From the NCBI GenBank assembly GCA_038848185.1, contig JAWCNV010000006.1, positions 16,315 through 80,314 of the forward strand: a DNA stretch of 64,000 bases, given 5' to 3'. The notes under the pieces are model-generated. The model had not been told where the DNA came from. It worked only from the letters and a program-made list of their open reading frames with translations, and did not search any database. How positions within the stretch are numbered: position 1 is the first letter of the stretch; every line of letters starts with the position of its first letter. Origin of the DNA: Thermoproteota archaeon. Lineage in GTDB: Archaea; Thermoproteota; EX4484-205; JAAOZP01. Below are positions 38,113 to 41,143 of this stretch, in pieces. The position numbers and the translations under genes were made by a program.

Positions 38113-38559
38113 ATGCCCCGGAAGCTTGCGAAAATATCCCAGTATAACATTGGGGAGAAGGAGCTTCAGGCTTTCCTAGGCCCATTGGAAGCAAGCATAA
38201 TAGAGATCGTGTGGGGTTCTGAGAGTCCTCTTACAGTTAGAGATGTTTATGAGAGGCTTAAGCGGAAGAAGAGGATTGCCTACACCACTGTTATGACTAC
38301 GATGGATAGGCTTTACTGCAAGGGGTTGCTTGACAGACGCGTTGAAAAAGGGAGGGGCGGAGTATTCTATGTTTACTGGTCAAGGTTTGAAAAAAATAGT
38401 TTCAAGAAGTCGGCTGTTCAAGAAGTTTTGAATAGTCTGGTTGAAAACTTTGGCGAGATAGTTGCAAGCTACCTAGTTGAAAGAGTATCTTCAGACGAGC
38501 AGGAGCGTAAGAGTTTGAAGGAGAGGCTTGAGAAAGCTTTGAAGAAGAAGGAGGGTTGA
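38113..38559 (+). CDS. BlaI/MecI/CopY-family (penicillinase repressor-type) winged-helix transcriptional repressor
   Basis: 148 aa. 'LGPLEASIIEIVWGSESPLTVRDVYERL...AYTTVMTTMDRLYCKGLL' matches the Penicillinase_R HTH domain. C-terminal coiled coil. Confidence 0.7.
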   Translation: MPRKLAKISQYNIGEKELQAFLGPLEASIIEIVWGSESPLTVRDVYERLKRKKRIAYTTVMTTMDRLYCKGLLDRRVEKGRGGVFYVYWSRFEKNSFKKSAVQEVLNSLVENFGEIVASYLVERVSSDEQERKSLKERLEKALKKKEG

Positions 38560-39902
38560 AGATGATACCCATAGAACTCAATTATATTGTTATGCAGTTT
38601 TTCCAGCCGTATTTCTATTATTCCACAACCCTTTTAATAGTTTCATTTTTCTGCATCAAAGCCCTTGCTAAGTATAACCATTTTCTTACAACAAGGATTA
38701 GGAGCCTATGCTACTTACTCCCGCTTACGATTCCTGCTTTACTCATAGCGTTAACTCCATATTTGCTGACGATGGGATTCTTCTTTATCAGCCCTTTAAG
38801 CCATAATTTACGCAACACATCATTACTTGTGCTTCTCAACCCTGATACGGCTCCGCCTCTTCCAACAATTTTCAGCCATTTCAAGTTAATTGGGGTTCCA
38901 TCTGTAACGAGGTTGATCGGTGTTCCACCCATAACCAGCATACTCTATGCAGTTGGTTTAACACTGTCACTACTCTACCTAGCAGTAACGATTATTCTGG
39001 GAGACAGGATTCTTAAGAGAGTTTTTCACATAGTTGAGCTTGAACCAAGTGAGTATGAATCGTTGCAGAGGAAGGTTAAAGAATTGTCTTGGAAACTAGG
39101 CATCGAACCACCGAGGATTGGGCTTGCAGAAGATTTGAGACCGAATGCCTTCACAATAGGATATGGGCGAAGAACGATGCTTGTATTCTCTTTAGGCATT
39201 CTCAAGACTTTGAAGGAGAAGGAGCTGGCTGCAGTCGCTGCCCACGAGCTGGCTCATGTGAAGAACCATGATTTCCTGTTTAAAACACTTTCCACAACCT
39301 TGACATTACTATCCTTCTTCAATCCTTTTGCGTATTTCGCATCTGTCACAGCTCAAAGAGAGAGGGAGATTCTTGCTGATGAGGATGGCACTAGAGTCCT
39401 AGGGCATCCGAGTCTACTGGCGAAGACGCTTATTAAAATACATGAGGCGTCGCGTTTATTCCCTAAAGAGAGTTTCACAGTTCGTTTAACATCAGGATTA
39501 TTCTTATCTTCCCCCGTCTCAATGGGAAGCAGTCTTCTTTCAACTCATCCGAAGCTAGATCAGAGAGTTGAGAATATTAAGAGGCTGTGTAGCAGGGATA
39601 AACCGGTTCATTCTAATCCATTAGTGCCGATAGTAATATCTATTCTAATAATTGCTGTGGGTGTTGTGAGCACATATTATCTTGCTTCAATTCAAAGTTC
39701 TTTTGTAAGACAGTATTTGCCGGCAATGCCTTTCAGGATGTTCCCAAGTGGAAAGGGGCTTTCTTTAACACCTAGCTTAGATAGGTTCAAAAATATGCGA
39801 GCACCCAGCTACTTAAAACTTAGGTTAAAGTCTTTAACCCTCTTTAAGCTGTGGGAGAATGAGGATTCACCTATCTACCTTTTGGTTTTCAACCGTAACT
39901 AG
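38556..39902 (+). CDS. BlaR1/HtpX-like membrane zinc metalloprotease (M56/M48 clan), sensor partner of BlaI
   Basis: 448 aa polytopic. 'AAVAAHELAHVKNHD' is the HExxH zinc motif in the BlaR1/HtpX context. Coupled (4-nt overlap) to the upstream repressor gene. Confidence 0.65.
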   Translation: MKMIPIELNYIVMQFFQPYFYYSTTLLIVSFFCIKALAKYNHFLTTRIRSLCYLLPLTIPALLIALTPYLLTMGFFFISPLSHNLRNTSLLVLLNPDTAPPLPTIFSHFKLIGVPSVTRLIGVPPITSILYAVGLTLSLLYLAVTIILGDRILKRVFHIVELEPSEYESLQRKVKELSWKLGIEPPRIGLAEDLRPNAFTIGYGRRTMLVFSLGILKTLKEKELAAVAAHELAHVKNHDFLFKTLSTTLTLLSFFNPFAYFASVTAQREREILADEDGTRVLGHPSLLAKTLIKIHEASRLFPKESFTVRLTSGLFLSSPVSMGSSLLSTHPKLDQRVENIKRLCSRDKPVHSNPLVPIVISILIIAVGVVSTYYLASIQSSFVRQYLPAMPFRMFPSGKGLSLTPSLDRFKNMRAPSYLKLRLKSLTLFKLWENEDSPIYLLVFNRN

Positions 39903-41143
39903 GTTAATGATGGTCTCGCCCCTAGTGTAAGAGGGATGTTCATAACTTTATTGTTTCTAACTATTGTCAATATAACAGTTTGGCCCGGTAAAGTATATTC
40001 CTCGAGAAAAGAGAAGAGGTCATCACCATTAGAAATCTTTGTGCCGTTTATCGCTATCAGGACGTCTCCGCCTATGATGAACCTGCTTCCCTTAATCAGA
40101 ACTTGCCTACTTCCGCCTTGTAAGCCTGCCTTGGAAGCTGGCCCGTTGGGAGTAATGCTTGTTATCAACCAGCCGTACGTTATGTTCACATTCATAGCTA
40201 GAGCCAAGTCATAAGTCATGTCTATACCTGCTACTCCAAGCCAAGGATGCTGATCGTAAGAACCCTTCGTAATTAGAGAATCTATTTCACGCAGTATCGT
40301 GTTGGAAGGAATAGCGAAGCCCAGTCCCTGCGAGTCGCTCACGATAGCGGTTGTTATTCCAACAACCTCGCCGCGAAGGTTTAGAAGAGGCCCACCCGAG
40401 TTACCTGGGTTTATTGGGGCAGTCGTCTGAATACAGTTGGCTATTGAATATCCTCCGCTAATATCTTCAGAGATTGTTCTGCCGAGGGCACTAACTATGC
40501 CTGAGCTCATTGAGCCTGCAAGCCCATATGGGTTTCCTATTGCCACCACAGCATCACCGACTCTGAGTGTTGACGAACTAACGATTTTAAGAGGCTTGAA
40601 TTCATTGATGGAAGCATTCACCGAAAGGACTGCTAAGTCAGCATAGGGGTCAGCACCCTTGACAACAGCAGGATAAGTGTTTCCGCCCCTAAATCTTACA
40701 GTAATATCGCGCGCATTATATACAACATGGTAGTTCGTCACAACCACAAACTGGTCTCCAAACCTGTAAATGAAGCCTGAGCCCTGAGTACTACTATAGT
40801 ATGTCCGGTAGAAAATATCGTATTGCACAACGGTTCCGGTTATCAGGACAACGGAGTCTCTCACATTTTCGTAAAGCTCAGATAGGGAGAAATTCCCCTC
40901 TGAAGCATAGATAGTCACTACGCTCGACGAGTTCTGTGTCAATTGGAGAGTTGAAACACGGGTCTCAAGGGTTGAAAGCCTGTTTTGAAGATCATCCATT
41001 CTGCTTAGGATAGTTAGAATGCCGATGGAGTAACCTACCAGTGCCCCTATCAAAATCCCTATTAGAATAAGGGTTGTTGCTGAAGACTTAGGAGAGGTTT
41101 TCGTCTCAGGCTCATACAATGAGAAGCTTCTGGTCAGTCTCAT
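39899..41143 (-). CDS. HtrA/DegP-family trypsin-like serine protease with PDZ domain, membrane-anchored
   Basis: 414 aa. N-terminal TM. 'TNYHVV' His region. 'DLAVL' Asp. 'GNSGGPLLN' catalytic Ser. C-terminal PDZ. Confidence 0.85.
   Translation of the reverse strand: MRLTRSFSLYEPETKTSPKSSATTLILIGILIGALVGYSIGILTILSRMDDLQNRLSTLETRVSTLQLTQNSSSVVTIYASEGNFSLSELYENVRDSVVLITGTVVQYDIFYRTYYSSTQGSGFIYRFGDQFVVVTNYHVVYNARDITVRFRGGNTYPAVVKGADPYADLAVLSVNASINEFKPLKIVSSSTLRVGDAVVAIGNPYGLAGSMSSGIVSALGRTISEDISGGYSIANCIQTTAPINPGNSGGPLLNLRGEVVGITTAIVSDSQGLGFAIPSNTILREIDSLITKGSYDQHPWLGVAGIDMTYDLALAMNVNITYGWLITSITPNGPASKAGLQGGSRQVLIKGSRFIIGGDVLIAINGTKISNGDDLFSFLEEYTLPGQTVILTIVRNNKVMNIPLTLGARPSLT

Follow-up and report, generated by a model that had tools for sequence, protein, structure and literature searches.

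A candidate BlaI/BlaR-type proteolytic switch without a sensor domain and its extracytoplasmic quality-control regulon in a Thermoproteota archaeon

BlaR1, the membrane protease of the bacterial BlaI/BlaR1 pair, cleaves the repressor BlaI directly (PMC9834060). A beta-lactam-binding domain is found in only about 6% of M56 proteins, roughly 94% of BlaR-like proteins having no such (transpeptidase) domain; in the commonest class the C-terminal region is short and often disordered, and 96% have a linked BlaI-like gene (PMC13492132). The CenIR pair of Clostridioides difficile, described in 2026, controls a small cell-envelope regulon that includes a small exported protein, its signal being unknown, and the paper on it mentions neither archaea nor HtrA (PMC13492132). 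Next to nothing is known of how archaea detect and answer damage beyond their cytoplasmic membrane. Here we analyze a 64,000-nucleotide (64-kb) stretch of DNA from a Thermoproteota archaeon (assembly GCA_038848185.1, contig JAWCNV010000006.1, positions 16,315 to 80,314), hereafter the window, in which a gene for a BlaI-family repressor is followed by a gene for a BlaR-like membrane zinc protease and by a convergent htrA gene. We propose, with a probability of roughly 0.65, that the pair is a BlaI/BlaR-type proteolytic derepression switch without a sensor domain, which drives an extracytoplasmic quality-control regulon. A first-pass annotation of the window had described archaeal pairs of this kind as essentially uncharacterised, and the searchable literature agrees: our searches returned no relevant account of an archaeal BlaI/BlaR pair, of an archaeal htrA regulator, of an envelope stress response with HtrA in archaea, or of HtrA or HtpX in Bathyarchaeota.

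The locus resembles the BlaI/BlaR1 and MecI/MecR1 systems of Staphylococcus aureus and Bacillus licheniformis in that the gene for a Penicillinase_R repressor immediately precedes that for a polytopic membrane zinc protease, which has an HExxH motif, a downstream Glu/Asp and an active site predicted to face the cytoplasm. As in those systems, the repressor would regulate its own promoter through inverted repeats, frequently a pair of dyads. In contrast to them, the archaeal pair has neither a transpeptidase sensor nor a beta-lactamase or PBP2a output, and its candidate operator is TACTAY-N5-RTAGTA and not TACA/TGTA and is placed after an archaeal TATA box and before the start codon. Moreover, the canonical scissile N|F does not fall in register in the alignments, and the protease falls below the NCBIfam BlaR1 cutoffs.

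The pair shares with CenIR and the majority class of bacterial M56 proteins a BlaI-like repressor, an M56 protease with a short region predicted to be disordered after its fourth transmembrane (TM) helix, and an exported or envelope regulon. As with CenIR, one member of the small putative regulon is a small exported protein without an assigned function. Unlike CenIR, it occurs in an archaeal host without peptidoglycan and has no peptidoglycan hydrolase or L,D-transpeptidase outputs; HtrA is central, and the operator and regulon were defined by comparative genomics and not by RNA sequencing. Because many bacteria have sensor-less BlaIR pairs (PMC13492132), what is new here is the archaeal variant and not the kind of system.

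Two further bacterial systems are close in particular features. BlaI_0696 of Clostridium thermocellum binds GTCTAT-N5-ATAGAC as paired dyads for four protomers, as determined by DNA affinity purification sequencing and electrophoretic mobility shift assays (PMC8457756). The archaeal dyads likewise have 6-nucleotide (nt) half-sites ending in CTAT, 5 nt apart, occur as paired dyads and belong to a small regulon centred on the operon of the repressor, whereas the outer half-site bases differ and BlaI_0696 acts at bacterial promoters, its targets being BlaR1 genes and a hypothetical protein. The M. tuberculosis pair BlaI/BlaR (Rv1846c/Rv1845c) includes the closest solved relative of the window repressor, and its BlaR partner is described in PMC13492132 as having no penicillin-binding domain. 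Its host and regulon (blaC and others) are different from those of the archaeal pair. We know of no reported link between it and HtrA.

Bacterial envelope or secretion stress responses that induce HtrA/DegP include sigmaE (DegS/RseP/RseA), CpxAR and CssRS of Bacillus. The archaeal system would follow the same logic, an extracytoplasmic or membrane signal raising the expression of an HtrA-family protease, and with sigmaE it would also share the proteolysis of a transcription inhibitor. However, the components are unrelated, neither a sigma/anti-sigma pair nor a two-component system being involved; the resemblance is one of working and not of family membership.

The three open reading frames that the first-pass annotation had called a BlaI-family repressor, a coupled membrane zinc protease and a convergent HtrA are all in place and each matches the expected profiles (Table 1). 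Its suggestion that the pair might control HtrA gains support from the promoters. Exact copies of the dyad TACTAT-N5-ATAGTA occur three times in the 64 kb, compared with none in 100 shuffles, and two of them precede the repressor gene while the third precedes htrA. When TACTAY-N5-RTAGTA is allowed up to one mismatch, five sites are found against 0.38 expected. Operators are thus present at both places where the first-pass annotation had proposed to look for them, but not in the TACA/TGTA form that it had named; that form was set aside, the conserved element being a 6+6 dyad with N5. All five dyads, checked base by base, lie between a TATA-like box and an ATG, in a shared layout of TATA-like box, 2-7 nt, dyad, 3-9 nt and ATG. 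The exception to this spacing is O1, which is the distal of two tandem sites and lies 47 nt from the repressor ATG.

The candidate operators are also conserved in position. O1 is kept in all members of the clade of the window, and O2 is shared by the window and loci L009 and L011-L013 but degenerate in the other members. The arrangement at O3, 'cat-tgt-dyad', with the ATG of the divergent gene 3 nt from the dyad, is found in every clade member. Among the htrA promoters of the window and 15 clade loci, only TTATTAA-N5-dyad-N7-ATG is conserved and the flanks have diverged. In archaeal promoters, an operator over the expected start of a short-leader mRNA is the usual site for a repressor that blocks recruitment of the polymerase. 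Because the dyad covers the expected start of short-leader or leaderless transcripts, bound repressor should block recruitment of RNA polymerase in this way.

We extended the comparison with a protease-seeded scan, taking one genome per species, which yielded 79 loci (1.38 Mb) from Brockarchaeota-like Thermoproteota, Bathyarchaeia, Conexivisphaerales, Nitrososphaerales and Methanomassiliicoccales. Upstream DNA was available for 75 of these loci, and in 74 of them a BlaI-like gene immediately precedes the protease gene, an arrangement that chance does not explain. An HtrA homolog is encoded within 10 kb in 42 of the 79 loci. It is convergent and downstream in 16 of these, has the same orientation as the pair in 19 where it is upstream and in 2 where it is downstream, and is divergent in 5; this survival of the linkage through rearrangement argues for a functional tie with the pair. 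Exact TACTAY-N5-RTAGTA occurs at 134 sites in the 1.38 Mb and at none in ten Markov-1 simulations, and its spacing is strict, as the remaining spacings between 0 and 11 give 0-1 matches each in the same sequence. With up to one mismatch and within 250 nt upstream, the dyad precedes the repressor gene in 63 of 74 loci and htrA in 34 of 42, and it stands before both genes in Brockarchaeota-like, Bathyarchaeia, Nitrososphaeria and Methanomassiliicoccales loci. The families found downstream of dyads are the repressor (57 loci), htrA (25), an NPCBM_assoc/CARDB surface protein (15), a MacB/FtsX permease (16) and an ArsR-type helix-turn-helix (HTH) protein (19).

An HtrA-seeded metagenome set (80 loci among the matches listed, 0.84 Mb), which consists mostly of distant HtrAs at 33-45% identity, served as a negative control only. 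These 80 loci contained no exact dyad and no blaI-like gene, and their five near-matches to the dyad correspond to the chance level. Together, sequence statistics and comparative genomics strongly support the wiring of repressor, operator and regulon, which we consider very probable.

The repressor itself matches Pfam PF03965 (Penicillinase_R) with E=8e-21 and 75 bits against a cutoff of 22.6, residues 22-140 covering positions 1-114 of the 115 in the model. M. tuberculosis BlaI (2g9w) is the closest solved structure (E=3.5e-8), and 1sd6, 1okr and 1sd4 also align. An N-terminal extension of about 20 amino acids (aa; SQYN...FLGPLE) is kept in archaeal relatives in the family alignment and lies outside the aligned staphylococcal and M. 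tuberculosis fragments. The only cysteine is C69. CopY-type metal sensing by the repressor was rejected because there is no C-terminal CxCxxxxCxC motif; the TIGR02698 score is 34.7 bits against a cutoff of 121.95.

The dyad has the same geometry as the BlaI_0696 site, GTCTAT-N5-ATAGAC, and its half-site varies together with the recognition helix of the repressor, AYTTVMTTMDRL. Residue 62 is Ser or Thr in 63 loci, none of which has TACCAT/ATGGTA dyads, and Asn in 12 loci (AYTTVM-N-TMDRL), 11 of which have such dyads; every locus with the TACCAT/ATGGTA class has Asn62. The BlaI-like repressor is therefore the likely dyad binder, and its residue 62 and half-site position 4 form a candidate specificity-determining contact. 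Binding to the dyads in its own promoter would make the repressor autoregulated.

The membrane protease passes the Pfam cutoffs of two families, with 79.9 bits for Peptidase_M48 (cutoff 20.3; 2.8e-22) and 60.3 bits for Peptidase_M56/BlaR1, PF05569 (cutoff 31). Translation may start either at a TTG that overlaps the repressor stop TGA (38557-38559) by 4 nt or at ATG 38562, which lies 2 nt past that stop with GGAGG before it; the NCBI annotation uses the 446-aa ATG form. The predicted layout, on which hydropathy and a structure model concur, consists of TM1 (about 16-38), TM2 (46-64), an outside loop of about 55 residues (65-121), TM3 (124-146), a cytoplasmic protease domain of about 210 residues (147-353), TM4 (354-372) and an outside tail of 74 residues (373-446). 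The protease domain is rich in Lys and Arg and is therefore predicted to be cytoplasmic. In the AlphaFold2 (AF2) model the helices span residues 16-38, 44-75, 124-154 and 354-385, and the core has a predicted local distance difference test (pLDDT) score of 85-97. This predicted topology, three TM helices, a protease domain, TM4 and an outside C-terminus, is the layout of BlaR1.

All of 34 relatives keep the catalytic residues H228-E229-xx-H232, E269 and D273, and the protease aligns to BlaR1 residues 107-246, including the HExxH motif and the downstream E...D. A Foldseek search with the model ranked ZMPSTE24 (2.7e-6) and BlaR1 (7.9e-6) about equally, the BlaR1 structures 8ext/8exs/8exp matching at 8e-6 to 9e-5, and the crystal fragment of HtpX, 3cqb, aligns over the HExxH region. 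Against the NCBIfam HtpX equivalogs the best score was 96.4 bits, from partial matches, where the cutoffs are 245-422, so that all of them were missed; against blaR1_generic it was 30.5 bits where the cutoff is 400. Like HtpX (M48B), the protein has an M48-type catalytic domain; unlike HtpX, it has an extra N-terminal TM architecture, a BlaR1-like TM4 after the domain and obligate pairing with a BlaI-family gene. By these profile comparisons the protease is neither a bona fide BlaR1 nor an HtpX equivalog. It belongs to a distinct archaeal M48/M56 subfamily, in which the TM1 motif FQPYFYYS is highly conserved.

The HtrA protein matches Trypsin_2 (108.8 bits) and PDZ_2 (34.7 bits) in Pfam. It also matches TIGR02037 (2e-79, 267 bits), under the subfamily cutoff of 416, which is consistent with an archaeal form with one PDZ domain. 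Its triad H139, D169 and S249 is invariant among relatives, hydropathy places a TM anchor at residues 25-43, and an extracellular position is predicted for the catalytic domain. In the palindrome CTAG (39899-39902) the protease gene and htrA overlap by their stop codons, so that there is no room for terminators between them; in relatives, 111-2344 nt separate the two genes. Convergent transcription could lead to interference or antisense effects in this genome.

Based on these results, we propose the following mechanism. In a first step, for which there is comparative sequence evidence, a repressor dimer would bind TACTAY-N5-RTAGTA at its own operon (two operators), at htrA, at the divergent surface-protein/ABC-2 exporter operon and at the gene for a 172-aa secreted protein. 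In a second step the activated M48/M56 protease, with its active site predicted to face the cytoplasm, would cut the repressor, which would derepress the regulon, the protease and repressor genes included, and so amount to autoregulation. This proteolytic step, suggested by homology and by obligate pairing, seems to us reasonably likely. The third element is the signal. All outputs are exported or membrane proteins and HtrA is at their head, and therefore, as judged from the content of the regulon, the signal is most likely damage to, or overload of, the envelope or secretome and not a small-molecule antibiotic.

Several points weigh against this scheme. By residue count in structure alignments, the BlaI/MecI scissile bond N101|F102 sits in NSLVLN|F. 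HMMER and MAFFT alike pair this staphylococcal bond with Y119|L120 of the window repressor, and the N112-F113 that is near-invariant in archaeal repressors (NSLVEN|F) lies 7 residues upstream of the aligned position; conservation of the scissile site thus appears ambiguous between two registers 7 residues apart, and we draw no evidence from it. The membrane orientation of the protease was derived from hydropathy and charge, the AF2 model and analogy, and its M48 score exceeds its M56 score, which makes an HtpX-like effector role possible. The covariation of residue 62 with the half-site is consistent with the pairing but probably stems from one evolutionary event and does not count as independent replication. 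The dyad is missing from five closer htrA relatives that have no pair in the vicinity, and control of htrA would accordingly be specific to certain lineages. Finally, we infer repressor binding, repression and cleavage alike.

The first-pass annotation had raised the question of an extracellular sensor domain, and the search for one was negative: a penicillin-binding (PF00905) sensor was sought, and the 74 residues past TM4 gave no Pfam match. Both this tail and the outside loop have pLDDT <50 and are poorly conserved. In relatives of 550-630 aa, no Pfam domain was found after TM4 except for one weak RACo_C match. As judged from the model and the profiles, then, the protease has no folded or identifiable sensor domain and no identifiable ligand.

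The main rival to the switch holds that the protease is an HtpX-like quality-control effector which is merely co-regulated with HtrA, the repressor being inactivated by a ligand, a partner or another protease. In E. coli, CpxR co-regulates htpX and degP, and an HtpX-like protease together with HtrA would form a functionally sensible regulon. The higher M48 score, the HtpX models that are the best NCBIfam matches, the lack of a sensor domain and the canonical N|F site out of alignment all fit this view. However, every HtpX equivalog cutoff is missed widely while the M56 gathering score is passed, the predicted topology with three TM helices before the protease domain and one after it matches BlaR1, and the repressor offers no other visible sensing feature, since it has only one Cys and lacks a metal motif of the CopY type. 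The first-pass annotation had named a plain HtpX protease found without a BlaI partner as the case that would speak against a switch, and this case fails, since the gene is paired in 74 of 75 loci and the protein misses the HtpX cutoffs. Such pairing is also the feature that defines bacterial BlaIR sensors (96%, PMC13492132). We therefore regard the effector explanation as unlikely.

Also improbable, in our view, is a second alternative that keeps the same wiring but changes the stimulus. Here the stimulus would be toxic compounds active on the membrane or surface, such as antimicrobial peptides or archaeocins, or surfactant-like stress, and not misfolded exported proteins, with ABC exporters as the main output in the manner of Bce/Lia-type detoxification modules. 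The ABC-2 exporter operon in the regulon of the clade, the MacB/FtsX-type permeases and ABC ATPases in Bathyarchaeia and the sensing of an antibiotic by canonical BlaR1 are in keeping with this. In contrast, htrA is the most widely conserved target other than the pair itself (25 loci), the protease contains no ligand-binding domain, and screens of cell-wall antibiotics gave no inducer for the bacterial CenIR (PMC13492132).

It is highly improbable that another factor binds the dyad, such as the ArsR-type HTH protein encoded beside htrA in Bathyarchaeia, with the BlaI-like gene only a target. An ArsR-type gene does adjoin dyads in 19 Bathyarchaeia loci, yet the window has five dyads and no ArsR-like homolog, and such a factor was rejected for this genome; moreover, the dyad accompanies the BlaI-like gene in every lineage, has the geometry of a BlaI-family site and covaries with the BlaI-like recognition helix. 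A coincidence of htrA adjacency and repeated dyads in one genome, for which only the prior that neighbouring genes need no functional link can be cited, can be dismissed in view of the enrichment, the strict spacing, the conservation across orders and arrangements, and the clean negative control.

Returning to the proteolytic switch, we considered how it might work as a homeostat free of any ligand sensor. HtrA could read the disordered loop and tail of the protease as substrates or PDZ ligands, so that the balance of free HtrA and unfolded exported protein would set the activity of the protease and thence, by way of repressor cleavage, the transcription of htrA. This speculative idea, which we think quite unlikely to be correct in this form, was suggested by a protease subclade (P0005-P0019 in the alignment) whose sequences share the terminal residues ...(L/F)N(I/V)YSLKV-COOH; PDZ domains bind hydrophobic C-termini of this sort. 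The C-terminus of the window protease, ...IYLLVFNRN, differs from that of the YSLKV subclade. If true, such a homeostat would be the first mechanistically defined archaeal envelope or secretion stress response, and would suggest how sensor-less bacterial BlaR-like proteins perceive signals.

Table 1. Positions in the window of the repressor/protease pair, htrA, the candidate operators, the putative regulon members and neighbouring genes.
Feature	Position	Strand	Details
BlaI/MecI/CopY-family winged-helix repressor gene	38113..38559	+	148 aa, Pfam Penicillinase_R
BlaR-like M48/M56 membrane zinc protease gene	38562..39902	+	446 aa from ATG; 448 aa from TTG 38556
Membrane-anchored HtrA/DegP-type serine protease gene	39899..41143	-	414 aa, Trypsin_2 and one PDZ
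Candidate operator O1, TACTATCTTAGATAGTA	38049..38065	.	3 nt past TATA box TTTATAAA (38038-38045) of repressor-operon promoter P1
Candidate operator O2, TACTATAAGCCATAGTA	38087..38103	.	2 nt past TATA-like TTAAATA (38078-38084), 9 nt before repressor ATG
Candidate operator O3, TACGACTGGTGATAGTA	38000..38016	-	1 mismatch; 3 nt before ATG 37996, 7 nt past ATAAATA (38030-38024)
Candidate htrA operator, TACTATTGGTGATAGTA	41151..41167	-	5 nt past TTATTAA (41179-41173), 7 nt before htrA ATG (41143)
Candidate operator before 172-aa gene, TACTACTGATAGTAGTA	33251..33267	-	5 nt past TTTATATA (33280-33273), 5 nt before ATG 33245
Divergent surface-protein/ABC-2 operon, putative regulon member	34304..37996	-	O3 upstream
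ABC ATPase of divergent operon	35245-36216	-	
ABC-2 permease of divergent operon	34304-35248	-	
172-aa signal-anchored protein, putative regulon member	32727..33245	-	TM helix, ~50-aa disordered linker, small alpha/beta domain
GNAT acetyltransferase gene	33307-34263	+	Divergent from 172-aa gene
tRNA-Gly(GCC) gene	41237-41310	-	~70 nt upstream of htrA operator
Two signal-anchored proteins	41384-42722	-	Overlapping open reading frames
Parvulin peptidyl-prolyl isomerase	43094-43426		
GDT1 cation transporter	43528-44091		

The regulon appears to reach beyond htrA. The surface protein of the divergent operon (597 aa) contains CarboxypepD_reg, three NPCBM_assoc and CARDB domains and TM segments at both ends. 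Its conserved start is ATG 37996; a 605-aa open reading frame from 38020 would hold the operator within the coding sequence. The 172-aa protein has no Pfam match, and its 155 database homologs are all named hypothetical. Its modelled domain of two helices and four strands matches only generic cystatin-like or NTF2-like rolls, none of them diagnostic. Six loci with homologs of this protein were fetched by protein identity alone, and four of the six (L163, L164, L165 and L168) have the TATA-dyad-ATG arrangement, three of these four being away from the repressor/protease pair. The GNAT acetyltransferase gene shares the intergenic region that holds this dyad and starts at an ATG 39 nt away from it, and the pairing of the GNAT and 172-aa genes recurs in L011 and L164.

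Additional features were noted around htrA. The tRNA-Gly(GCC) gene lies on the same strand as htrA, and the synteny of the two is also found in L009. Past htrA are two signal-anchored proteins, neither of them preceded by a dyad. The first is a 254-aa open reading frame (200 aa in the gene calls of the contig) of no family, and the second is a 198-aa matrixin-like zincin with HExxHxxGxxH, after which come the parvulin and GDT1 genes. In four distant, probably bacterial, HtrA-seeded loci (L116, L136, L147 and L150), an M48-like gene with 22-27% identity to the window protease adjoins htrA, without a BlaI-like gene or dyad; thus adjacency of HtpX and htrA can arise independently of the switch.

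Bathyarchaeia show some elaborations of the system. One metagenome-assembled genome (CAVYES01; L020, L025, L027, L040 and L051) has five paralogous repressor/protease pairs with both operator classes, which suggests insulated parallel circuits, some of them tied to ABC transporters rather than htrA. In some Bathyarchaeia loci (e.g. L021/L169 3602-4063, L024, L027) htrA is divergent from a gene for an ArsR-type HTH_5 protein, and the region between the two has conserved the exact sequence TACTATTTAAGGTAGTA. Where htrA is missing, this sequence also stands some 200 nt before the repressor gene. This arrangement, which has no counterpart in the window, may represent a regulatory cascade.

The outcome of this study is a testable candidate circuit with a 17-base-pair operator, four target promoters in one genome and a common TATA-operator-ATG layout. 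Given the spread of the family over Brockarchaeota-like Thermoproteota, Bathyarchaeia, Nitrososphaeria and Methanomassiliicoccales, signalling of this kind may be widespread among archaea. The results also bear on the question, posed with CenIR, of what is sensed by the roughly 94% of BlaR-like proteins that have no beta-lactam-binding domain; the regulon described here points to extracytoplasmic proteostasis.

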